A stretch of 64,000 nt of DNA. Source: an uncultured delta proteobacterium (lineage in GTDB: Bacteria > Myxococcota_A > Polyangia > Fen-1088). The translations under genes and the position numbers were made by a program. Below the pieces are notes generated by a model that was not told the origin of the DNA, did not search any database, and saw nothing but the letters and a program-made list of their open reading frames with translations. The first letter of the stretch is position 1. The number at the start of each line of letters is the position of its first letter. The stretch lies in contig CAWCMR010000001.1 in assembly GCA_963796685.1 (NCBI GenBank), positions 93,053-157,052 of the forward strand, given 5' to 3'. Below are positions 47,116 through 60,598 of this stretch, piece by piece.

Positions 47116-48336
47116 TCAGACGAAATAGGTGAAAGCATCGCCCGCCGAGGCGATGAGCAACTCCACGCCTCCCTCCGTGTACATGCGGAAGCAACCGGGC
47201 TTGGACACCAGTTGCATGGCACGGCGGCAGCCGAGCTGGCCAAGGAACTTTCTCCAGTGCCGAAGAGGTTCGGTGTCGCTGAGCTTCGCCTCGACCGGCA
47301 GCCACGGCTTGCCATCGCGAACGATCAAGAAGTCGATCTCCTCCTTCTCCTTGTTGCGGAGATATCGGAGATCGAATGTCCCTTCGCCGCTGTCAGTCCA
47401 GAAGTCGCACGCCTTGCGCAGGTGAACTGCCACCAAATTCTCGAAGCGCGCCCCCGGATCCTGCACCTCGCTCCAATCCCACAGGTAGAGCTTGCTCTCG
47501 CGTTTCAGGCTGCGGGACACCGAGCGCGTGTAGGGCTTGAGCTCGAAGGTGTAGTAGAGCTCTGCCAAGAGGCCGAGCCAGCGTGTGACCGAGTCGAAGC
47601 TCACCTCAAGATCCTCGCGCAACGAAGCACGCGAGAGCGGCGAGCCAACCCGCTCCGGCAATAGAGAGGCCAGCATCTCGACCCGGCTCAATTCCGGGAT
47701 GCGAGACAGGTCGCGCAGATCTTCGCGAAGCACTTTCTCGATCCGACTTCGCTGCCATACCCGTGCTTTGCGCTCGTTGGCGGACAGGAACGGTTCGGGA
47801 AATCCGCCGTAGCGCAGGAGGGGCGCGATCGGATCTTCCTTCGCCGGGGTCGTCGCGTGGGCGAAGAGCGCGCCGATCCGTTCATCGGGCTCGCTGGGCA
47901 GCGATACAGCCGCCAACTCCGCAACCGAGAGCGGATGCAGATGGAAGTGGAGCGCCCGACCGAGCAGGCTGTCACCGCCCTTCTTGTACACGTTGAGACG
48001 CGCACTGCCCGTTACGATCAAATCGAACGGCTCTTCGCGCGTGTCGTACATGCCCTTCAGCGTCCGCTTCCATCCTCGGGCTTTATGAATCTCGTCGAGC
48101 ACGACCAGGGGAACCACGGACGATGTGGTGAGGCCGGCCGTAACCGCCGCGGGCTCCTTGGTCCACACGCGACGGAAGCCGACATCATCCCAGTTGTGGT
48201 AGGCGCCAACCTTCCGCTCGGAAAGTAGCATCTTTCCAAGCGTGGTCTTGCCGCATTGACGTGGCCCTGACACCAGCGCCATCTTGTAGTCCGAGAAGGC
48301 CAACTCTCTGATGGGTACTGCCAGGCGGCGTTCCAT
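47116..48336 (-). CDS. AAA_14 ATPase with DUF4143 domain
   Basis: GPRQCGKTT, VLDEIHK, TGSA, GGFPE, KLYLWD and EIDF...VEAK motifs. Confidence 0.9.
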   Translation of the reverse strand: MERRLAVPIRELAFSDYKMALVSGPRQCGKTTLGKMLLSERKVGAYHNWDDVGFRRVWTKEPAAVTAGLTTSSVVPLVVLDEIHKARGWKRTLKGMYDTREEPFDLIVTGSARLNVYKKGGDSLLGRALHFHLHPLSVAELAAVSLPSEPDERIGALFAHATTPAKEDPIAPLLRYGGFPEPFLSANERKARVWQRSRIEKVLREDLRDLSRIPELSRVEMLASLLPERVGSPLSRASLREDLEVSFDSVTRWLGLLAELYYTFELKPYTRSVSRSLKRESKLYLWDWSEVQDPGARFENLVAVHLRKACDFWTDSGEGTFDLRYLRNKEKEEIDFLIVRDGKPWLPVEAKLSDTEPLRHWRKFLGQLGCRRAMQLVSKPGCFRMYTEGGVELLIASAGDAFTYFV

Positions 48337-48755
48337 GGCAGACCATACTACGATCTGATCGGAGTTTGGTCGAGACGGTATCTCGGCCAAACTTCGACAT
48401 GATCGACGTTTGGTCAGGTCGTGCCCGGCAACGCCTCCCCGCCGATAGCCACGAACGACAAGCTCGGCTGCAAGGACCTGGATTCCGGGACTGCTCACAG
48501 GCACTCGGCGCTGTTGGCACGCATTTGTCACAACTGCAGGGAACCCGGTGGAACGAGAGGTGACGCGCTGGACAGAGAGGGGAGTCGCGTCGAGCCTCGG
48601 ACCAAAATCCTGAGGAAACTCGGCGGAGCCGGCTCGAATTCGAGTAGGAAAGGCATCCTTCTCGACGGCACCCTGGAACACTCCCGCATCATTCGGCGGT
48701 TGACCACCGGATGTACATGGTCATTATGATCATAACGATCGCCATTGAGGACCCC

Positions 48756-49058
48756 ATGATCACCGAAACCAACGCTGTAACCTTTCGCCAAAACCTTGGC
48801 GAGATGATCAACCAGGTGCAGTTTCGCCGGGACACCATCGTCATCAAAAAGGACGGCAAGGCGGTGGCGGCACTTGTCGATGCCCGGCTGTTCGAACGTA
48901 TCCGCCAGATGCGAGAACGCTTTGATAGCCTGGCCGGGCGGCTTGCCCATGCCTACACGAATGTGCCTGAACAGGAGGGATTGGCGGAGATCGATCGCGT
49001 CGTTGCTAAGGTCCGAGGCGAGGCGCCTTCCAAGCCTGCCCGCTCAAAGAAGGGCTGA
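48756..49058 (+). CDS. Phd/YefM family antitoxin
   Basis: FRQNLGEMINQV...IVIKKDGKAVAALV. Confidence 0.85.
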   Translation: MITETNAVTFRQNLGEMINQVQFRRDTIVIKKDGKAVAALVDARLFERIRQMRERFDSLAGRLAHAYTNVPEQEGLAEIDRVVAKVRGEAPSKPARSKKG

Positions 49059-49061
49059 CCC

Positions 49062-49478
49062 CTGCCAAGCCTGCGCATCGTTCTGGACACCAATGTTTTG
49101 GTGTCAGGTTTGGCGTACCCTGGCAGCATTCCTGGTCGCATCGTCGGGGCGTGGCGGCAGGGGGCCCTTGAGGTAGTCCTGTCGCGCTACATTCTCGACG
49201 AGCTTTCGCACGTGCTCCCGCGTCTCAACCATCGGCTGAATTGGCAGCCTGCCGACCTTTCCGACCTGATAGACATACTGGCCCTGGAGGGAGAACTGGT
49301 CGAGCCACTGGCCCCGGGCAAGAAGCTCCCTCGGGACGTGAAGGATGTGCCCGTACTCGGTACACTGCTTGCCGCAAAAGCCGACTACCTGGTTACAGGC
49401 GACAAGGATCTGCTTGTCCTTGCCGCGCGCTACCCCATCGTTACCCCCGCCGATTTCTGGCAACGCCACGGCGGTTGA
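49062..49478 (+). CDS. PIN-domain toxin (no canonical start codon)
   Basis: RIVLDTNVLVS, RDVKD and LVTGDKDLL motifs. Only CTG codons (49062, 49071) precede the DTN motif. Confidence 0.8.
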   Translation: MPSLRIVLDTNVLVSGLAYPGSIPGRIVGAWRQGALEVVLSRYILDELSHVLPRLNHRLNWQPADLSDLIDILALEGELVEPLAPGKKLPRDVKDVPVLGTLLAAKADYLVTGDKDLLVLAARYPIVTPADFWQRHGG

Positions 49479-49760
49479 TGGCCCGCCTCAAGGTGCCGGG
49501 ACGCACAGGAAGCCTCGGCGAAGCACGACTCGTGGCGAGCAGCGGATGCCTGCCCGTGTAGGTCGAGGGCGATGGCCTCATGAGAATCACCGGGCAGCGC
49601 TCTCCCCAAAGACATCGCCTCAGACTCTGGCACGAATCGTGAGGATGAGTATCTTGAAGCGACTAGAAAGCAACACGCCTGATTCAGTCGAGCTCGAGCT
49701 GCCACCGTCAGACGTACGGGCGACCGCTGGTTGTCTTGAGCTCGAGATGCCTGGAAGAAG

Positions 49761-49920
49761 ATGCCCGTGGCCGACCACCACGTGGTTCGCGTGCAGGCCG
49801 CCGACGGCCGGGTGCTGGAGCTGAGCCCTGGACACCCCACCGCCGGCGGCCGCACGTTCGGCGACCTACGACCTGGCACCCGGCTCGATGGCGCCGCCAT
49901 CGTATCGGTCGACCTTGCCG
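49761..49920 (+). pseudogene. Hint-domain fragment
   Basis: HHVVRVQAADGRVLELSPGHPTAGGRTFGDLRPG resembles the Hint B-block (T/SxxH) region; both ends are missing. Confidence 0.5.
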
Positions 49921-50036
49921 CGACTCGGGAGGAAGCACGGGCACGGATTTCTGAGAGGCACTATTCCTTCGCGCCGTGCTCCGTGCCGTTCGTGCTCGGG
50001 GCCATGACGGCACACATGTTGCTAAATAGGTCGACC

Positions 50037-51083
50037 ATGAAATCCTCACGGCGCACTCTGCCCGTTGTGGCTCTGACGGTCAGCGGTTTTGCCATCTTCA
50101 CCCTCGCGTGTGGGTCGAAGTCGGGGCTTGGAGGCAGCGGAGGCCAGCCGGGGACAGGCGGCGCTGCCGGCGCGGGACAAGGCGGCAGCCCAGCGCAGGG
50201 TGGTGTTTCCGGAACTGGTGGCGCGGCAACCGGCGGCACGCTCGGGACGGGCGGCAGTACGGCCAAGGGTGGCGCATCCGGCGCGGGCGGCATTGTGGGG
50301 GCCGGCGGTGGCCCGGGCACGGGCGGTGCCGCAGCGGACGCTGGCCTCGCGTGCACCGACGACGCCGGGGCCGCCTTGCCCGGCGCTGCCCGTCGCTGTG
50401 CCCAGGACTCGGACTGTACCGTGGCGGTCGCCCAGCGATGCTGCGGGCCCGATCAAGCCATCGGCGAGGCAACATCACAGTCCGGCACCTACGCGGCCTG
50501 CCTCGCGCTGCCGCCCGGTGCGTGCCAGGGCCTCGGTTGCGCCAAGTTTCTCGGCTACTCGACGGACACCGGCAAGACGACCCCGGTGGAAGGCTCGTCG
50601 GCTAACCCGCTCGATTGGGTGACCGTGCACTGCCTGAATCAGATTTGCACCACCGACGTGCTCGCCACCCAGGATGGCGGCCGAGATGCTCAGACAGCCG
50701 ACGCGCCGGTCGATTCCGGTGTCACGCCCCCCGGCGATGGCGGCAGCTCGGTCTGCGGCAGCGGCGTTTGCACCGCGACCCAACTTTGCATTCGTCCCTC
50801 CTGCGCCGGTGGAACTGCCCCGCCTTGCGTAGCCGTCGGCGATGCCGGCTCGTGCCCCACGGGCTACACTTTCTCGTCATTGTGCCAATACGCGACCGGC
50901 GGAGGTACGGGGCCAGGGTGCGTGCCACCAGCCTGTGTGAACCCTCCACCGTTCTGCCTCGACACCCCCACAGCTTGCAGCACCAAGTTGACCTGCGGAT
51001 GTCTGCCTTCCAATGTCTGCGGAACCGGCGGTGGTAGTTGCATGATGATCAGCTCGTCCGTCGTGCAATGTGGCGCGGCGTGA
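50037..51083 (+). CDS. Gly-rich/Cys-rich lipoprotein
   Basis: Lipobox TLAC; GTGG repeats; two Cys-rich domains. Confidence 0.75.
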   Translation: MKSSRRTLPVVALTVSGFAIFTLACGSKSGLGGSGGQPGTGGAAGAGQGGSPAQGGVSGTGGAATGGTLGTGGSTAKGGASGAGGIVGAGGGPGTGGAAADAGLACTDDAGAALPGAARRCAQDSDCTVAVAQRCCGPDQAIGEATSQSGTYAACLALPPGACQGLGCAKFLGYSTDTGKTTPVEGSSANPLDWVTVHCLNQICTTDVLATQDGGRDAQTADAPVDSGVTPPGDGGSSVCGSGVCTATQLCIRPSCAGGTAPPCVAVGDAGSCPTGYTFSSLCQYATGGGTGPGCVPPACVNPPPFCLDTPTACSTKLTCGCLPSNVCGTGGGSCMMISSSVVQCGAA

Positions 51084-51120
51084 ACGGCCGCGGATCCGCG
51101 CCCCGTCAACCTTCGCCACC

Positions 51121-51142
51121 TGCTAGAATTCAGACCAGGAGG
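51121..51142 (+). promoter_or_regulatory. Extended -10 element and RBS of the radical SAM gene
   Basis: TGCTAGAAT followed by AGGAGG. Confidence 0.35.
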
Positions 51143-51147
51143 GTCCG

Positions 51148-52506
51148 ATGCCCGAGACGATCAAGCGGCTGCGCGGGATCATCCTGACACTCACCGAGCG
51201 CTGCAATCTACGTTGCGACTATTGCTACGTGCCGGTCGAGCAAGGGCGGACCATGACCCCGGAAGTGGCGGCTCGCGCAGTCGATTGGTTCGCGGCCAAC
51301 GCGGCCGAAGACGGCGCGCTGGGGCTTTCCTTCTTCGGCGGCGAGCCGTTCTTGGCCGCCGAGCAAATGCGTCGAGTGACCGGACACCTGCGGGACCGCG
51401 TGCCTGCCCACCGGCGCGTGCGCGTGGTGACGCCGACCAATGCCCTCGCCATGTCTGAAGCAGACGTCGCCTGGTGCCGACAGCAGGACGTCGAGCTGGC
51501 CATCGGCATCGACGGCGGCGCTGATTCGTGTGGACGCAAGCGCGCGGACGGCAGCGAGTGCACGAATGCCCTTGCGCGGGCCGTGCCCGAGATCCTGCGC
51601 AAGCTGCCGCCGGGATCCGCCCTGGCACGCATGACCGTGACACCGGTCAACGTGGGGTCGCTGTGCGCGAACATCCGCGCGCTTGGACGCATGGGCTTCG
51701 AGCGGATCGTCTACCTGCCGGACTACGATGCTCGCTGGGACGAAGCCGCGCTTGCGTCGTGGCGGCGCGAGCACCAGCGGCTCGCCACCTGGATGATCGG
51801 CGCTCGCTCGGTCGGCAAATCCGTGCCCGAGCTGCCGGCCTGGAAGGCGATCGAAGCGCGCCTCGTGCGCAGGGTGCCCCGTCGTCGCTGCGGCGCCGGC
51901 ATCGACCAGGTCACGGTCGCCCCCGACGGAGAAGTGTTCCCGTGCTATCGCTTCACCTACGCGCAGGATGCCCAGGTCTGGCGACTCGGCGACGTGCGCG
52001 ACGGCATCTTGGATTCGGAAAAGGTCGCGCGGCTCGAACAGGCCGACGTCGCTCGGCTGCGTCCCGAGCGCCGTGCGTGCGCATCCTGCACGGCTGCCGA
52101 TGGCTGTACCCATCACTGCCCGGCCGTGGGATTCCTCGTCACCGGAGATGTGGACCGGGTACCCGACATCGTCTGCCGTCTGATGGAGGCGCAGGTCGCG
52201 GCCGTGCGCGAGCTGTGCGCGGCCTTCCAGGGTACGGCCCGGTCCAAGCCGGTGGCCCGACCGTGGGCAAGGGCGGCGGCCGTGGCTGCCGCGGTCGCGG
52301 GCATGGCAGCGTGCGAAAGCAACAGTCCGGCCAAGCCACGGCCCGACGCCAGTGATGCCAAGCAGGTCCAGGACCTTGGTGTGGGGAAACCGGACGCCGC
52401 GCCTCCCGTCGATGCCACGGGCGTCGACAGCGAGGCCATCGATGGCGGCCAAGTGATCGATTGGGATGCCTACACCTATGTCGGCGGGGTGTGCATGCTC
52501 CCCTGA
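51148..52506 (+). CDS. Radical SAM/SPASM protein with fused lipobox-containing C-terminal tail
   Basis: CNLRCDYC, FFGGEP, CGAG...GEVFPC and CASC...GCTHHC...C (SPASM); tail AAAVAGMAAC...YVGGVCMLP. Confidence 0.9.
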   Translation: MPETIKRLRGIILTLTERCNLRCDYCYVPVEQGRTMTPEVAARAVDWFAANAAEDGALGLSFFGGEPFLAAEQMRRVTGHLRDRVPAHRRVRVVTPTNALAMSEADVAWCRQQDVELAIGIDGGADSCGRKRADGSECTNALARAVPEILRKLPPGSALARMTVTPVNVGSLCANIRALGRMGFERIVYLPDYDARWDEAALASWRREHQRLATWMIGARSVGKSVPELPAWKAIEARLVRRVPRRRCGAGIDQVTVAPDGEVFPCYRFTYAQDAQVWRLGDVRDGILDSEKVARLEQADVARLRPERRACASCTAADGCTHHCPAVGFLVTGDVDRVPDIVCRLMEAQVAAVRELCAAFQGTARSKPVARPWARAAAVAAAVAGMAACESNSPAKPRPDASDAKQVQDLGVGKPDAAPPVDATGVDSEAIDGGQVIDWDAYTYVGGVCMLP

Positions 52507-52542
52507 TTGCGCCCTGGCCCCCACTCTGTCTGGAGGTTCACG

Positions 52543-53151
52543 ATGTCCGAGAGCACCAAGAACACGACCCGAGAAATTGTCCTAACCGTCACGCCCACCA
52601 ATGTCGCCACGTTGTGCGCGGATATCCGAGCGCTGGCGCGGGAGGGTGCTCCGTGCATCGACTACGTGGCTGATCCCGACGCGGCTTGGGACGAGACGGC
52701 CGTCGAGCTGTGGCAGCGAGAGCACGAGCGGCTCGCCACTTGGATGGTCGGCGCGCGCTCGGCCGGGCAAAGATTGCCCGAGCTGCCGGCGTGGCAGGCC
52801 ATCGAAGCTCAGCGGCAAGGGGCGAGCCCAATCAGCCGACCGGCGCGGGTGCTGCCCACCGCCAACCCATTGGTCAAGGCGGCCATGCTCGCCGCCGCGG
52901 TCGCGGGCATGGCCGCGTGTCAGTCCAATGGACCCATGAACGTGAAGACGGATGCCGGCCAGGACACCAACCAGACGCGCGACGTGGGGATAGGAGGCGG
53001 CATCTGCGCTATCCAAATCGACCGCGATGCCTTGGCGCCCACTGATTTGCTGCCGGCCACGGACAACGCCTCCGGCGGTGGCTCGGCGATCGACGGCGAC
53101 CAGGCCGACACCGCGGACGCCTATGTGGAGCCTATCGGCGGCATCTGCTAA
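52543..53151 (+). CDS. Truncated paralog of the radical SAM protein, candidate precursor/substrate with two GGIC motifs
   Basis: GGAGG RBS; residues ~14-89 align to rSAM residues ~162-237; same AAAVAGMAAC segment; no CxxxCxxC and no SPASM. Confidence 0.75.
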   Translation: MSESTKNTTREIVLTVTPTNVATLCADIRALAREGAPCIDYVADPDAAWDETAVELWQREHERLATWMVGARSAGQRLPELPAWQAIEAQRQGASPISRPARVLPTANPLVKAAMLAAAVAGMAACQSNGPMNVKTDAGQDTNQTRDVGIGGGICAIQIDRDALAPTDLLPATDNASGGGSAIDGDQADTADAYVEPIGGIC

Positions 53152-53153
53152 GC

Positions 53154-53909
53154 CTACCGTCGGCGCGCGACCCAGACCTGACGAACCGACTTGCTCCATT
53201 CGAGCGGCTCGTTGCGTAGGCCACCGTAGGCTTGGTCGATGTCGAATCCACAGTTGCGCAGGAGCGCGGCCAGCTCGTGAGGCGGGTACATGCGCACCGA
53301 GGTCTCTGGCAGATCGACGCGCGTGCCGTCCGCACGAAACAGGGTGCGCCGAGAGATGGCGCGACCGGAGAGGGCGTCATACTCGGTGGCTTCGAGCTTC
53401 GTTCCGTGGCGGTCTTCGCGCCAGGTGCGCTGCGGCCAGCCGCGCATGAGCGCCAGGGGATTCGACACGTCGAGCATGAAGGCACCGCCCGGCCGCAAGA
53501 CCTCGCGCACCTGCTCCAGCACCACGCGGTTTTCGTCGTCGGAGAAGAAGCCGAACGCGGTGTAGAGACAGATGCAGGCGTCGAACGGTCCGAGGCCGCG
53601 CAGGTCGCGCATATCCCGTCGCTGCCAGTCGATTGCCGCTTGCGCAGCCTGCTCCGAAGCGGCCAGCTCGTGTGCCAGCTTGAGCATCGGCTCGGACAAA
53701 TCCAACCCGGTCAGGCGGTACCCGTGTCGGGCGAGAGCAATGGCGTGGCGACCGAAGCCGCAGCCCAGGTCGAGCACGCGGGCCTCGGACGCCAGCGCGA
53801 GGGCGCGATCCACGAACCTCGCGTCCTCCTCGGCCAGGGCCGGATCGAGCAGGCCCCGGTAGAACTCCAGGTACCGCCCGTCGAACAGCTCGGCAAACCA
53901 TTCGGCCAT
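53154..53909 (-). CDS. Class I SAM-dependent methyltransferase
   Basis: VLDLGCGFGRH, GLDLSEPML, DMR and LRPGG motifs. Confidence 0.9.
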   Translation of the reverse strand: MAEWFAELFDGRYLEFYRGLLDPALAEEDARFVDRALALASEARVLDLGCGFGRHAIALARHGYRLTGLDLSEPMLKLAHELAASEQAAQAAIDWQRRDMRDLRGLGPFDACICLYTAFGFFSDDENRVVLEQVREVLRPGGAFMLDVSNPLALMRGWPQRTWREDRHGTKLEATEYDALSGRAISRRTLFRADGTRVDLPETSVRMYPPHELAALLRNCGFDIDQAYGGLRNEPLEWSKSVRQVWVARRR

Positions 53910-53910
53910 G

Positions 53911-54543
53911 TCAGGGACGCCCGCAGTAAATCGTTTGACCGGTACGGATGCAGCCTGCGCCGCTGCCGGGACCGCCGCACAAGCAGGTGCAGGGATCTCC
54001 CGACGAGCACGAGGCCGGCAAGGACTGGCAGGATGTCCAGGAGTTGATCTCCAGGCAGCCGCCGTCGAGGCTGGGCGCCATGCCACAGCCTTCCTGCGTG
54101 CCGGGCGGACAGACGCCCCCGTCGAGATGTGAAAGGCAGCGTGGAGCCGGACCACCGCTGGCGGTGAAGCAAAACTGATCGCTTGGGCAGCTTGCGTCTC
54201 CGCACCGGAAGCTCGCATCCGCTGGTGCGCTATCGATGATCGCGTTGGCAACATCCGAGGCGGCATCTTGCGAGCCCAGGTCGCACGGTGCGCAGATGCC
54301 AGCATTGGGGGGCAGGCACATGCCACAGCAGGGCGTGGTGTTGGGAGGACAACCGGCGTCCGGGGCGGCATCGGCAGCCGCGTCGGTCACGTCGACCCCG
54401 CTCGCCATGTCCGCGACCTCGTCGGCCACGGAGTCGGTGCTCCCCTTTCGATCGACCGCACCGTCCTTTGCGGTGGAGCGCAGGGCGGCGCCCCCGCAGC
54501 CGGAGAGGACAGCGACGACGAATAGCATTCGGGCGAACGTCAT
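53911..54543 (-). CDS. Cys-rich lipoprotein
   Basis: Lipobox LSGC; Asp/Ala linkers; Cys-rich C-terminal domain. Confidence 0.7.
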   Translation of the reverse strand: MTFARMLFVVAVLSGCGGAALRSTAKDGAVDRKGSTDSVADEVADMASGVDVTDAAADAAPDAGCPPNTTPCCGMCLPPNAGICAPCDLGSQDAASDVANAIIDSAPADASFRCGDASCPSDQFCFTASGGPAPRCLSHLDGGVCPPGTQEGCGMAPSLDGGCLEINSWTSCQSLPASCSSGDPCTCLCGGPGSGAGCIRTGQTIYCGRP

Positions 54544-54583
54544 GGTCGAGAGGATTCTGCAAGCATGAGGCCAACGTCGCAAC

Positions 54584-55420
54584 TCAGCCGGGCTCGGCGC
54601 ACAGAAGGCCCGAGGTGGCGGAGTAGCTCCCGCACTGAGCGGATGGGGAGACCGTCTTGCACAGCGTTCCGGCGCAAGAACACGATGGCGTTGCAGAGCC
54701 ACAGGGATTCGGTACGCAGCCGCATTGCTGCAGGCCTAGGGCGGGACTGACGAGCTTGAGTAGCAGCTCGCTGGCGCTGCATTGTGGAAGGGGCGTGCAA
54801 GTCGTGAGGGTCGAGCCATCGATGCCACCGTCGGTGCCGCTTGCCCCGCCAGTGGCCAGCCCCCCCGAGCCGCCGGTCGACGATCCGCCGGAGCCCCCCG
54901 TCGCCATACCGCCGGTGCCACCCGTCCCGTTTCCGCCCGAACCTCCTGCCGCGGCGTCGCTGCTGCCGCCCGCGCCGCCGGTCGACGTGCCACCGCTGCC
55001 GCCCGATTCCGTGCCTCCACCGCCGCTCGCACCTCCGGTCTTCACGCCGCCTGCGCCGCCCAACGCTGCGTCGCTGCTTTCTTGTCCGGCCCCGCCCCCG
55101 GTGGCCCGGCCGCCTGCACCCGCTCCCGCCAATCCGCCGGCTCCGGCGCCTCCGGTGACGGTCACCAAGCCACCCGTGCCTCCGACCGTGCCCGCGCCGC
55201 CTGTCCCTGTCAGCACACCGCCGGACCCGCCCTTGCCCGCAGAGCTGCCCCCTAGACCACTGGCACTGCCTCCCGAACCGACGCCACCGGAGCCTGTCTT
55301 GGTGCCGGTCCCGCTGCTCGAGCATGAATTCTGAGATGAAACGGCGAGCAGGAGGATGAGAAGGGAGGCCACAGGTATCTTTGGGCCCAGACCGAACGAG
55401 GGAAGACTTCGCCTTTCCAT
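54584..55420 (-). CDS. Gly-rich protein with C-terminal Cys-rich domain (probable lipoprotein)
   Basis: Hydrophobic signal then Cys; long GG-x repeats; CGCVPNPC..SCSC. Confidence 0.65.
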   Translation of the reverse strand: MERRSLPSFGLGPKIPVASLLILLLAVSSQNSCSSSGTGTKTGSGGVGSGGSASGLGGSSAGKGGSGGVLTGTGGAGTVGGTGGLVTVTGGAGAGGLAGAGAGGRATGGGAGQESSDAALGGAGGVKTGGASGGGGTESGGSGGTSTGGAGGSSDAAAGGSGGNGTGGTGGMATGGSGGSSTGGSGGLATGGASGTDGGIDGSTLTTCTPLPQCSASELLLKLVSPALGLQQCGCVPNPCGSATPSCSCAGTLCKTVSPSAQCGSYSATSGLLCAEPG

Positions 55421-57237: not shown

Positions 57238-59367
57238 TTAGGCCTCGGTGAGAGTAAGAACGTGTCTGCCGTTCATGGTCACGTCGACCCGTCGGCGATG
57301 AGGATTCCTGTACGGCTCGTAGCCTTTGCTCTTGGCTTCCTCGGCCTCCTTTTTTCCCATGGGATTCTCCACGAGCAGCCTGTCAGGAATCCTCAGGCGG
57401 TCGGCGAGGATGTCCTTAAGTGCCTGCTTCACGTTGGTCGCGCGGTAGACGGCGAGCTGCATGTTGCGGGGATCGTCGGTTTTCGCCTCGTCACCAGAAG
57501 CCACAAGGCTATTCGGCGCCGCTAGAGCGCATGAGCTCTTGCGAAAACGTACCAGATCGCAGTGAGCGGTCAGAACGACCTGTGTGTCATCCCGCAGGAA
57601 CCACGGCAACTCGGCCGCGCACAGACGGCGTAGCGCTTGGCGCCCGTCCTGCGTCAGGGTCGCCGAGCCCAGATCGAAATGGGCGCGGGCTGTGCCTTGA
57701 GCGGCGATCTGCATTTCGCGAAGACCGAGCGCACGAGTGTCGTCGACGCTTACTAGGTCGTCTGGCATTCGGATCCAGCCAAAGGAGCAGAAGAAGCTGG
57801 CCCCGACGGCGGTTCCAACCTTCTTGGCAGCTTGAAATGACACGATCTGAGGCTCGTGGTTGCCGGCCCCATTGAGCATCAGTGCAACGTCCCGTACTCC
57901 CGCGCGCAGGACCTGTTGGGCACCACCGGGCAATCGTTCGATGGCCTTGTCCACCTGATCGTCGATCTTGCTCCAGTCGCGCTTGCTCTTGCCCTTGGTC
58001 ACGACCTTGGCCACATCGGAAGGGCGCGGTGCAAACCAAGCTCCGCCGTCCAGGATCTTGAAGGTGCCAACAAAATCGCGTGGGAACCAGAGTTCGTTGG
58101 TTACGAACGTGCCCTTGCCAGAGAGATCTGACTGATCGCCCAACCCCAGCGCGAAGCCGAACCCGCCAGCAAAGATGCTGTATTTCCGGTTCCAGTTGTC
58201 CTTCGGGGAACGTTTGCTCTTCATCGATACGGTCAGCTCCCCTAGCGAGCCTCCCAACTTCATCCCCGTTGGCAGCTTGTCGAGCAACTTCTGCGCGGCC
58301 TTCGTGACGCCTTTCGCAACCTTCGCCACGATGGGATCATCGTCCTTCTCGGGCGGGTGCATGCTCAGCTCAAGCTCGTAGGTGTAGTCACCCTCCATGA
58401 TCTTTTCGTCTTCGCCCTCACGCGGCTGCGCACCGACGCCGTTCCTAATGCCAAGATCGCTCGCCAAGTTCGGCAAGTCGTACCGAAACACGTGATCAGG
58501 GTTGGTTCGCACGCTCGCCGCAAGATTCTCGATCCACTGCAACTGCGAGCGCGTGTTGCCGTTGATGACAGATCTGTTGAGGCCGAGAATGGTACGCGCC
58601 AAAGCTCGAATCAACGGTAGGTCTTCTCGATGCCAGTGGCCCGGCGACTCGGTCGTTACGGCGCCGTGGATCAGGTCCTCGAACCGCTCGGCAGTCGTCC
58701 GGGGCCGGCTGCCTTGCTCCAAGGTCGAGCTGTACCAGTGATTCGTGTCGTAGCACCACACGAGGAGCTTGCCGACAAAATCCGGATCCAGCAGCCGCTG
58801 CAATTTCCTCACTTGCCAACTATGCAGCGGCATCGTCTCGGCGCGGGTCATGACGACCTTGGTTTCGGCATCGATCGTCCCTTTGCCTTTGAGCACGTCA
58901 TCGAGCGCCAGCCCGAAGAAGGATGCGCGCTTGCCGTCCGGCATGAGAACGAAGCGCTGGCCTTCAGGTACGCCGAGCATCCGGAAGTCCACGATCAGAT
59001 CGGCCCCGTCGGTATGGATAGTACCGTAGTTTGTATCAACGACGGGCGCGAGCGTGATCTGGAAGCTCTTGCCGGACGCCCCAGCTTCACCACAGATGGG
59101 GTAAGCTTTCCGTGACGCCTTGGTGCGCGCATCCAGGACTTCGACGAGCCGCCCCTCGATCCAGGTCGAGGACTGGTTGACGATGAGAATCCACGAGACC
59201 TTTGGGGGATCGTGCGGATCGTCGATCACGGATTCCCAGCGCCCCGTGATGTTCGGCTTCTGTGGCTCGGGATGGGGCGAATCCATGCGAAATCCGTTGG
59301 CAAGGCGAAGTCTTACTGGCCCCTTCTCGCCGGGGGCAATCTTGTGAAGGGGAGCGTCGCTGTCCAT
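57238..59367 (-). CDS. Large hypothetical protein with C-terminal OmpA-like domain
   Basis: HFDLGSATL, AHCD, NMQLAVYRATNV and RRVDV; strong RBS before ATG 59367. Confidence 0.7.
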   Translation of the reverse strand: MDSDAPLHKIAPGEKGPVRLRLANGFRMDSPHPEPQKPNITGRWESVIDDPHDPPKVSWILIVNQSSTWIEGRLVEVLDARTKASRKAYPICGEAGASGKSFQITLAPVVDTNYGTIHTDGADLIVDFRMLGVPEGQRFVLMPDGKRASFFGLALDDVLKGKGTIDAETKVVMTRAETMPLHSWQVRKLQRLLDPDFVGKLLVWCYDTNHWYSSTLEQGSRPRTTAERFEDLIHGAVTTESPGHWHREDLPLIRALARTILGLNRSVINGNTRSQLQWIENLAASVRTNPDHVFRYDLPNLASDLGIRNGVGAQPREGEDEKIMEGDYTYELELSMHPPEKDDDPIVAKVAKGVTKAAQKLLDKLPTGMKLGGSLGELTVSMKSKRSPKDNWNRKYSIFAGGFGFALGLGDQSDLSGKGTFVTNELWFPRDFVGTFKILDGGAWFAPRPSDVAKVVTKGKSKRDWSKIDDQVDKAIERLPGGAQQVLRAGVRDVALMLNGAGNHEPQIVSFQAAKKVGTAVGASFFCSFGWIRMPDDLVSVDDTRALGLREMQIAAQGTARAHFDLGSATLTQDGRQALRRLCAAELPWFLRDDTQVVLTAHCDLVRFRKSSCALAAPNSLVASGDEAKTDDPRNMQLAVYRATNVKQALKDILADRLRIPDRLLVENPMGKKEAEEAKSKGYEPYRNPHRRRVDVTMNGRHVLTLTEA

Positions 59368-59378
59368 GGATCCCCTCC

Positions 59379-60598
59379 TCAAGCCTTCTGTTCTTTTTCA
59401 AGCTGCTTGAGCGTTGCCGGACCCAGCAGATCCTCTTCCTCTATCTTGTGCTGGGCCCGGAAGCGCTTCAGGGCCGCGCGGGTGCGTGGCCCGAGCTCGC
59501 CTTCCTCGTCGCCGCAGTGGAAGCCCAGGTTCTCGAGCCGCGCCTGGACGCCGGACAAGTCTTCGATTGGGTCCAGGTGGCCCATGCCCAGGTCGAGAAT
59601 CAGGCAGTCGGTTTTGCCTTTGGAGTCCTTGGGCCAAACGATTAGGCGCAGCTCCGTCGCTGTTAGCGGGAGCTTTTCATCCAGCAACCCGTCTCCGCCG
59701 GTTGTGCCCTTGCGGCGGTGGATCTTTCGACCGTCACGGAAAGTCAGTTCATAGCGGGCGTTGGCTGCTGGTTCATCGACGTCCAATTCGATGGTCAGAT
59801 GAAGCCGCTGGGTGGGGCGCTTTGCCGTGATCTTGGTTTCCTGGTCTGCCGCCAGCTTGAACACCGCTGCCTTGTGGGGCGGGATGGCGACCTTGTCCCC
59901 GGGCCTGAGGACGTCAGGGTTCGGCCGCGCCTTGGCCAGCTCTCGATTGTCGGAGTGGTGCCATACGGTGCCAACGTCGGAGAAACCGTACTTCCACGCA
60001 ATTCGCGCTGCCGTCTCCCCCTGGCGCACGACGTGGACGCGAGCTTCGCCATGTTCGTCGCCAGCCTTGGCACCTTCGAAGGAAGCGGCGTCGAAGTCGA
60101 CGAAGGTCAGCTCCACTTGGCCCTTTGACAACCCGCGCAGCTCGACCGTGCCGCCAGGCGGGGTCCTACCCTCTGCGATGCGGCCGTCGGGCAGCTTGGC
60201 CGCATACTTGACCCACGCCACTGGAAGCCCTTCCTTGTCCTTGACCACAAACCTCACCCAGGACTTCTTGTCCTTCCTGCCCTTCGACATGTCCTTGGTG
60301 GCCGTCTGGGGCGCCATCGCGGGCACGCTCATGGCGCCCATGAGGGGCGCCGGTGGCGTGTTGGGCGGCATCTTCGCCCCTGGCATGTGATTGGCGGTCC
60401 ACAGGTCGAGAACGCGCAGCGCGGGCGAGCTCTCGATGAACACGTCGAACGAGCCCATGACCGGGTAGGCCGCGCCCTCGACCGCGTGCGAGAGCACGCC
60501 GCCGCCGGTCGGGCGGGAAACGGCGTTCCCGGTCGACTGCTTGATGTAGGAGTTCATGTTGCCCACCGGGTTGCCTTCGATGGTCACGGTGGACGCTA
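59379..60598 (-). pseudogene. PAAR-like DUF4150-LysM-peptidoglycan-binding protein, 5'-truncated
   Basis: VTIEGNPV...STG...GGGVLS...SFDVFIE (second half of DUF4150); HVVRQGET (LysM); VQARLENLGF...GPRTRAALKRF (PG_binding_1). Confidence 0.75.

Follow-up and report, generated by a model that had tools for sequence, protein, structure and literature searches.

Leader-peptide recognition is the organizing principle in the making of RiPPs (peptides that are ribosomally synthesized and then modified post-translationally), and radical S-adenosylmethionine (SAM) maturases are thought to need a RiPP recognition element (RRE) or a leader-binding site. Here we describe a locus in a 64,000-nucleotide stretch of DNA from an uncultured delta proteobacterium of the class Polyangia (contig CAWCMR010000001.1, positions 93,053 to 157,052; hereafter the window), in which a small gene, ORF2, lies behind the gene of a radical SAM/SPASM enzyme (rSAM) that bears a C-terminal tail. 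Several described systems invite comparison. Among the borosins, the OphMA homodimer modifies the tail of its partner, and homology links the leader of SonA, a split-borosin precursor, with part of the fused OphMA (PMC8429565). PapB makes six thioethers between Cys and the β-carbon of Asp in the CX3D units of PapA (PMC10177961). DAG-RiPPs (DybA/DybH), which are hybrids of RiPPs and lipoproteins, make use of the lipoprotein pathway (PMC13056109). RiPP precursors of the NHLP and Nif11 kinds bear leader domains that are long, folded and related to enzymes (PMC12537861), and BURP-domain cyclases are mentioned among fused enzyme-core precursors (10.1101/2021.12.24.474128).

The genes and segments concerned are the following.

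51137..51142, + strand: ribosome-binding site (RBS) AGGAGG of the rSAM gene, read directly from the sequence and homologous to the RBS and start region of ORF2
51148..52506, + strand: radical SAM/SPASM enzyme with fused C-terminal tail, 452 amino acids (aa); Pfam Radical_SAM, Fer4_12 and SPASM above cut-offs
51631..51861, + strand: segment M of rSAM, aa 162-238, delimited by BLASTP and by alignment to CteB
52532-52536, + strand: RBS GGAGG of ORF2, 6 nt ahead of the ATG
52543..53151, + strand: ORF2, an rSAM paralog free of iron-sulfur (Fe-S) sites, 202 aa plus stop
52582..52812, + strand: M', the retained barrel fragment, ORF2 aa 14-90, 64% identical to rSAM 162-238

An earlier note on this DNA had taken ORF2 for a stripped-down copy of the rSAM that acts as a multi-core precursor. 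ORF2 is homologous to the enzyme, has a single origin, is under purifying selection, lies beside an intact enzyme and has the motif architecture set out below. We put at about one half the probability that the tailed enzymes form a family of enzyme-fused thioether precursors, from which ORF2 would have split off as a stand-alone precursor by tandem duplication and internal deletions. The family of tailed rSAMs, found in Polyangia (Myxococcota), is probably a more important finding than ORF2 itself.

As in the borosins (OphMA; SonM/SonA), the enzyme here would be in frame with its own C-terminal core, the tailed rSAM representing the fused form and ORF2 the split precursor. Unlike the borosins, the enzyme is a radical SAM/SPASM protein and not an N-methyltransferase, the piece retained is a fragment of the catalytic barrel and not a clasp domain, the fused and split forms stand side by side in one locus, and the enzyme part is separated from the core by a signal-like segment; the system here is known from sequence alone. 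The rSAM shares its 3+4 arrangement of seven invariant SPASM Cys with PapB/PapA, other ranthipeptide (non-α thioether) systems and QhpD/QhpC, and, as in PapA, Cys-x(n)-Asp units are repeated in an acidic peptide (PMC10177961). It differs from PapB in that the first cluster Cys is at residue 19 and not 119, with no N-terminal domain of RRE size (PMC10177961), and in that the substrate would be fused to the enzyme or derived from it, the thioether chemistry being putative. As in the DAG-RiPPs, the core is preceded by a hydrophobic stretch and then a conserved Cys, in a locus without a dedicated protease or transporter, and the order of events that we propose, modification in the cytoplasm and then processing by Lgt and LspA, is the same (PMC13056109). 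The published DAG-RiPP examples use MNIO enzymes (oxidative enzymes dependent on multinuclear non-heme iron), the term 'radical SAM' being absent from that text (PMC13056109); their signal peptide is N-terminal, whereas here it would stand behind 108-360 residues of enzyme or enzyme fragment, with putative cleavage. The NHLP and Nif11 leaders stem from unrelated enzymes (nitrile hydratase, Nif11) and not from the maturase of the precursor itself. A search of the full-text literature, which leaves subscription papers and supplementary files outside its reach, found no paper joining RiPP, lipobox and radical SAM, no precursor 'fused to the maturase', and no radical SAM example of a fused enzyme-core precursor or of an enzyme-derived leader.

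ORF2 is derived from the adjoining radical SAM gene

Only 36 nt separate the rSAM gene (51148-52506) from ORF2. Residues 14-90 of ORF2 match residues 162-238 of the rSAM without gaps (49 of 77 identical, E = 1e-31, BLASTP), which confirms the internal copy of rSAM residues ~162-237 that the earlier note had reported, and residues 87-202 match rSAM 350-449 at a lower level (43 of 116 identical, E = 6e-8). The source of the fragment, segment M, comprises a strand-helix-strand-helix of the barrel and the linker to SPASM. ORF2 residues 12-44 also weakly match a designed TIM-barrel β-α-β unit (E = 1.6e-4), in agreement with a retained strand-helix-strand. The N-terminal match to the rSAM (8 of 17) is insignificant at the protein level (E = 1.1, BLASTP); the likeness claimed for this end is nevertheless upheld by the DNA, where 23 of 29 positions align from the RBS to codon 6. 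The local score of this alignment, 15, was reached in none of 2000 shuffles (mean 7.0, sd 1.25), and the likeness recurs in a metagenome locus, L021, where the strong RBS is kept as well. From the homologous RBS and start DNA we conclude that the whole rSAM gene was duplicated, ribosome site included.

Both Fe-S regions are gone from ORF2, as had been noticed: neither BLASTP nor hhalign finds a counterpart to rSAM residues ~14-161, the CxxxCxxC region with C19/C23/C26, or to the seven SPASM cysteines (C248-C343). ORF2 therefore lacks the Fe-S binding motifs that mark a radical SAM/SPASM enzyme. It does contain the AAAVAGMAAC-x-SN-x-P segment in common with the rSAM and the two GGIC motifs described before, at 52996-53007 and 53137-53148, the second being its last four codons. 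No Pfam or NCBIfam family matches ORF2; for all 15 members of its family, Pfam at E ≤ 1 yields scattered matches at chance level (best 0.015), and PADLOC returns nothing for ORF2 and, in all, generic viperin-like rSAM and methyltransferase matches alone. On these comparisons the resemblance between ORF2 and the rSAM is far beyond chance, and ORF2 is a relative of the rSAM by descent and not an enzyme.

The same relationship is evident between the families. The ORF2 family profile matches that of the enzymes with a probability of 100 and E = 2.4e-76 (hhalign, profile-profile). In a maximum-likelihood tree of segment M (74 residues, 34 rows; locus L030 was left out, as the anchor pattern missed it), the 13 ORF2 M' rows form one clade (support 100/99) inside the clade of close rSAMs (90/93), with a stem of 0.23 and short later branches. 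This shape suggests that the gene was duplicated once, changed in a burst and was constrained thereafter. The genome of the window holds two copies only, the rSAM and ORF2. Most ORF2s keep the C-terminal helix of the enzyme (…IARRLLAAQVAAVRE…), which the window copy and P0002 have lost, and the linker region of P0015 still contains a recognizable SPASM remnant (…CAPADGCTH…; …SACAPADGCTHGPA…) that is gone from the other ORF2s, which shows stepwise erosion between M' and the signal-like segment. The claim that ORF2 was born from the maturase gene thus stands, with its single nested clade and its co-duplicated RBS and start. On present sequences the best reading is that an enzyme carrying its own cores is the ancestral state, and that ORF2 split off from a fused enzyme-precursor.

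ORF2 is under purifying selection

Long spurious ORFs are common in this window of 63% GC, and a clearly broken remnant of the same gene exists in another genome (G006, see below). An open frame left merely by the rarity of stop codons in GC-rich DNA would make ORF2 a decaying duplicate, which we regard as very improbable on the following grounds. In a search of 5.8 billion clustered proteins we found 15 ORF2-type proteins including that of the window. The other 14, of the truncated kind that the earlier note had proposed to look for, are full-length (202-245 aa), share 44-92% identity with ORF2 and cover 80-100% of it, and their alignment has few indels save in one variable linker. Forty-four alignment columns are invariant across the family. 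In M' these include W49, W57, R59-E60-H61, T66-W67, G70-G75, P79-L81, W84 and A86-I87, giving the motif W..REH..L.TW..GARSAG...PEL..W.AI; in the hydrophobic segment A114, A117, A118, V120, G122 and C126; and in the first core unit D147, G149, G151-G153, I154, C155, A156, Q158, D162 and A163, with D160 nearly so.

Between ORF2 and its ortholog in L021, the sole ortholog with DNA, the ratio of nonsynonymous to synonymous substitution rates (dN/dS) comes to 0.36 for the whole gene, M' having 0.26 and the tail 0.32. The ratio is higher in the linker plus signal-like segment (0.50) and reaches ~1.1 over the opening 13 codons (n = 13). The corresponding values for the rSAMs of the two loci are 0.24 overall, 0.10 in M and 0.38 in the tail. 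Across the paralogous segments of ORF2 and the rSAM, dN/dS is 0.22-0.26 at a dS of ~1, far from the value near 1 expected of a pseudogene, and third codon positions are conserved least (57%, compared with 71% and 81%). GC3 is ~0.8 along the whole ORF2 frame, as in the rSAM gene. The mean identity of M' is 81% among 13 ORF2s and 74% among 15 close enzymes. ORF2 thus shows none of the marks of a pseudogene, namely a dN/dS near 1, a broken frame or a lack of homologs, and selection rather than decay, as the earlier note had argued from the strong RBS and the in-frame losses, is supported.

The enzymes carry a fused tail throughout the family

The rSAM scores 38.1 against Pfam Radical_SAM (cut-off 29.5) and 27.9 against SPASM (cut-off 21.5), and it has both the CxxxCxxC motif and a SPASM domain with 7 Cys, as expected of a radical SAM/SPASM maturase. 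The 15 family members compared all have C19/C23/C26 and C248/266/311/314/320/324/343, and likewise W373, A374, A377, C389, D400, D416, D432 and G446-G447-x-C449 in the tail. Its best NCBIfam match is the PapB family NF047865 (165.3 bits, E = 2e-48), below that model's cut-off of 340. Residues 9-351 align to residues 97-443 of CteB; since the alignment starts at residue 9, no N-terminal RRE is present.

Members were taken from metagenome loci L021-L027, from seven other genomes of the same class and from metagenome-assembled genomes titled Polyangia, Polyangiaceae, Myxococcales, Deltaproteobacteria or Haliangium; among 401 same-class genomes, 9 have a match, counting G000 and G006. A fused tail, in frame with the enzyme, is present in every complete member examined (15 aligned sequences; L024-L027; L030-L036/L042-L048). 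The layout is the same throughout: the SPASM helix is followed by basic residues, an Ala-rich hydrophobic run of 13-21 residues ending in Cys, and an acidic tail. The next-nearest rSAMs (at most 31% identity, e.g., L050 and L058) end after the SPASM helix. A profile of the tail, run against 1.84 billion representatives, met 8 clusters, all of this Polyangia family, and these are enzyme-fused forms, ORF2, or fragments still bearing the last helix of the enzyme. An independent family of small peptides as the origin of the tail was rejected, as the search met this family alone. Weak matches in relatives (E = 0.002-0.008, some with stop codons) were set aside as noise, and the atlas scores for P0003 (0.77-0.78, to Myxococcota clusters) were uninformative.

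Cysteine units in the tails

The motifs of the two tails in the window are located as follows.

52315..52503, + strand: acidic tail of the rSAM, with a single G-G-V-C near its end (…YVGGVCMLP)
52993..53022, + strand: canonical core unit of ORF2, G-G-G-I-C-A-I-Q-I-D, Cys155/Asp160 at spacing 4
53137..53148, + strand: C-terminal G-G-I-C of ORF2, Cys being the last residue

The tails of the family are acidic and hold one to seven G-x-C motifs, with repeated [G/P]-G-x-C-x(4-6)-D units such as GVCPVQLD, GLCPHPID and GICAIQID. Over 28 tails, whose related sequences make these counts descriptive, Gly is at -2 for 85 of 86 tail Cys (shuffle mean 0.17, maximum 0.30), and, of the 54 internal Cys, 47 have Asp at +5 to +7 (spacing 4-6), compared with a mean of 0.36 and a maximum of 0.55 in shuffles. 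All 15 ORF2-type proteins end in G-I-C, and 16 of the 28 tabulated tails end in G-[IL]-C. The first GGGIC-x-D unit of the relatives has been deleted from the rSAM tail of the window. The Cys motifs of ORF2 are the same as those of the enzyme's own tail, as previously noted; the designation 'multi-core' holds for ORF2 in a modest sense, since it has one canonical G-G-I-C-x4-D unit and the terminal GGIC. A repeated Cys-x(n)-Asp unit beside a PapB-like enzyme looks like a substrate of the ranthionine type, and we infer the chemistry from this likeness.

A lipoprotein-signal-like segment precedes the tails

Between the enzyme-derived part and the tail, both proteins have a hydrophobic segment.

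52261..52314, + strand: lipoprotein-signal-like segment of the rSAM, PWARAAAVAAAVAGMAAC; its last residue is Cys389, invariant in the family
52864..52920, + strand: lipoprotein-signal-like segment of ORF2, NPLVKAAMLAAAVAGMAAC, with Cys126 invariant in 15 of 15 homologs

The AAAVAGMAAC stretch that ORF2 and the rSAM have in common looks like a lipoprotein signal peptide. The Cys is conserved in all 15 ORF2s and in all 15 aligned enzymes, behind an h-region of 13-21 residues, and the residue at -3 is M or L in the clade of the window. In a crude census of candidate lipoproteins of the window genome, A and G are often at -3 and L-A-A is among the commonest triplets. This genome encodes Lgt and two copies of LspA. 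The segment is not N-terminal, its first residue being 108 in ORF2 and ~372 in the enzyme. In the family no internal start codon is conserved ahead of it, and a small lipoprotein made of the tail alone from an internal start was rejected, there being neither a conserved start codon nor an RBS and the upstream frame being conserved as protein. A Tat signal was likewise rejected, as RRW ahead of the hydrophobic segment is confined to L026, L027, L031, L032, L034 and P0029.

A hydrophobic segment with a conserved Cys fits export, and the tails might accordingly be read not as substrates but as acidic Cys/Asp stretches outside the cytoplasm, serving a membrane-tethered enzyme as anchors or as metal-binding repeats. 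In that case the rSAM would act elsewhere, e.g., on the Cys-rich lipoprotein encoded directly upstream (49761-51083), and ORF2, as a bitopic membrane protein or a lipoprotein, would have a role of its own. A gene for such a lipoprotein stands directly upstream in the window, L022 and L023, and SPASM enzymes that cross-link Cys-rich proteins are known (PMC13692751). The upstream protein is, however, unconserved beside distant members (L024; a weak 43-aa match in L026), whereas the tail is present in all, and a regular G-x-C-x(4-6)-D repeat on an RRE-less, PapB-like enzyme is what a tethered substrate would be expected to look like. We think it quite unlikely that the tails are anchors.

Distribution of ORF2 and division of the core units

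ORF2 adjoins the 3' end of the enzyme gene in the window, in L021 and in L022, where its first 29 codons are followed by the contig end; the contig of L023 ends too early for ORF2 to be scored. It is absent from L024-L027 and from L030-L036/L042-L048. The enzyme tails in the three ORF2-bearing loci have 1-2 Cys and end in …CMLP, …CPLMLP or …CMPP, and those of ORF2-less relatives have 2-7 Cys and mostly terminate in Cys, an ancestral ending that ORF2 retains. Cys-poor enzyme tails beside ORF2 fit subfunctionalization, in which the enzyme sheds cores and the other copy has shed catalysis.

M' retains 30 of 74 positions that are at least 90% conserved with an identical residue in both paralog groups, and 2 positions have switched between the groups (M162 to L14 and P191 to A43). 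That nearly all conserved residues of a normally barrel-buried segment are kept suggests that contacts of the parent are retained, which M' could make either in trans with the enzyme or with a partner common to both. Such conservation, and the fact that ORF2 is always beside an intact enzyme where its context is known, would also suit an accessory or regulatory subunit that is no substrate. Its fragment would bind the surface of the enzyme or of a partner in order to modulate, scaffold or block (in a dominant-negative or chaperone-like manner), and its tail would be a membrane or lipid anchor. What speaks against such a subunit is that the conserved units of the ORF2 tail (DxGxGGGICAxQ and the terminal GIC) are the multi-copy Cys units of the enzymes, and that the enzyme tails have lost units in the loci bearing ORF2, which looks like the transfer of a substrate role and not like an anchor. 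We consider it unlikely that ORF2 is such a subunit.

A second deletion derivative is found in G006, a genome of the same genus that is 99% complete.

L004 1468-1952, - strand: deletion remnant of G006, with a 137-aa tail ORF that has three G-x-C units

Enzyme codons 1-23 stand in one frame, run into a stop and are joined to the region from residue ~337, where the C-terminal helix and the tail are open; the remnant adjoins the counterpart of the window's methyltransferase (see below). No enzyme body was found in G006. Internal deletions have happened more than once at this locus and a remnant can survive, so that an open frame is no proof by itself; the case for ORF2 rests on homologs, selection and the evidence of its origin. 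Among the sequencing runs searched, no RNA run is listed for the locus, and the best DNA run contains 0.24 of its words.

A proposed route and the points against it

The reading of the tailed enzymes as fused thioether precursors, with ORF2 as their split-off form, would imply the following course of events. A tandem duplication of the entire maturase gene, ribosome site included, would have come first, and both Fe-S regions would then have been lost in frame. The RRE-less enzyme would carry its own substrate behind SPASM and would form, in the cytoplasm, thioether rings from Cys to Asp (of the ranthionine type) both in its own tail and in that of ORF2. ORF2 would be recruited through M', which keeps the conserved surface of the parent segment and may mimic an enzyme-enzyme contact or complete an open barrel. 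The hydrophobic segment would route the tail via Sec, Lgt and LspA, and the enzyme-derived part would be cut off; export and cleavage by the lipoprotein pathway are modeled here on the DAG-RiPPs. The end product would be a lipidated, cross-linked peptide.

We hold a more far-reaching version tentatively, as less likely than not. Each enzyme of the family would be its own multi-core precursor and would be spent once, through its internal lipoprotein signal and Sec, Lgt and LspA. One lineage would have escaped this cost with a duplicate stripped of all three Fe-S sites, whose two-strand barrel fragment would plug into the intact enzyme or pair with it, by barrel completion or by mimicry of a dimer interface, and so bring the core to it.

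Several points weigh against the precursor reading. The evidence is throughout the sequence of uncultured Polyangia, the motif and conservation counts come from related, non-independent sequences, and the genomic context is known for 3 of the 15 ORF2 members (the window, L021 and L022). The Cys-Asp spacing is 4-6, compared with the CX3D of PapB, and neither the terminal Cys nor the penultimate GG-x-C-P-A-P unit has a downstream Asp. Unlike normal lipoprotein signals, the signal-like segment stands inside the protein, with 108-360 residues between it and the N-terminus, and distant members carry A, S or G at -3 and not L, V or I. A two-strand barrel fragment may not fold alone. Finally, the tail ORF of G006 persists without a maturase, so truncated copies can linger.

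Genomic neighborhood

The gene that follows ORF2 is convergent with it.

53154..53900, - strand: class I SAM methyltransferase, Pfam Methyltransf_25 4e-21

Its stop codon starts three bases past the point where that of ORF2 ends. Among NCBIfam models it comes nearest to the daptide-type RiPP methyltransferase, at 77.7 bits and thus below the cut-off of 175. It is the only conserved neighbor, being in the same position in L021, L024, L026, L027 and L004 and weak in L044. In L025, L042, L043 and L045-L048 none was seen. No protease, transporter or RRE gene is conserved near the locus according to Pfam and locus comparison, and the only PqqD-like gene of the genome is on another contig (C11). Promoter and terminator scans of 49500-54500 found nothing.

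Three lipoprotein-like ORFs flank the locus, at 49761-51083 (+), 53911-54702 (-) and 54584-55420 (-); their linkers are rich in Gly and their C-terminal parts in Cys, and none has a Pfam or NCBIfam match. The first of them also stands directly upstream of the enzyme in L022 and L023; its 5' part, before an internal Met-Lys-Ser-Ser start, may belong elsewhere. Just upstream, at 48711-49478 (+), is a pair of a Phd/YefM antitoxin (E = 5e-8) and a PIN_3 toxin (E = 6e-13), adjoined by an AAA_14/DUF4143 ATPase at 47116-48681 (-), which suggests a variable accessory region. Further away, an ORF at 59379-60587 (-) has Tox-PAAR-like and peptidoglycan-binding domains, and the 714-aa ORF after it (57238-59382) has no Pfam match.

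Implications

The tailed rSAM family has no RRE, and its substrate would instead be tethered to the enzyme. The occurrence, in one lineage, of adjoining fused and freshly split forms would amount to a natural experiment in the evolution of a separate precursor, with its recognition domain, out of an enzyme, and ORF2 as a separate substrate would be cheap compared with the spending of a whole enzyme. If the internal lipobox is used, RiPPs of the lipoprotein pathway would extend past the MNIO systems of PMC13056109 and to internal signals. If the barrel fragment docks on its parent enzyme, this would be a new mode of recognition and a potential handle by which engineered cores might be steered to a thioether-forming enzyme. 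And if the family does consist of enzymes that are their own precursors, with a barrel fragment as the leader of the split form, it would be the first radical SAM counterpart of the fused and split borosins and the first case of a leader taken from the maturase's own catalytic fold.

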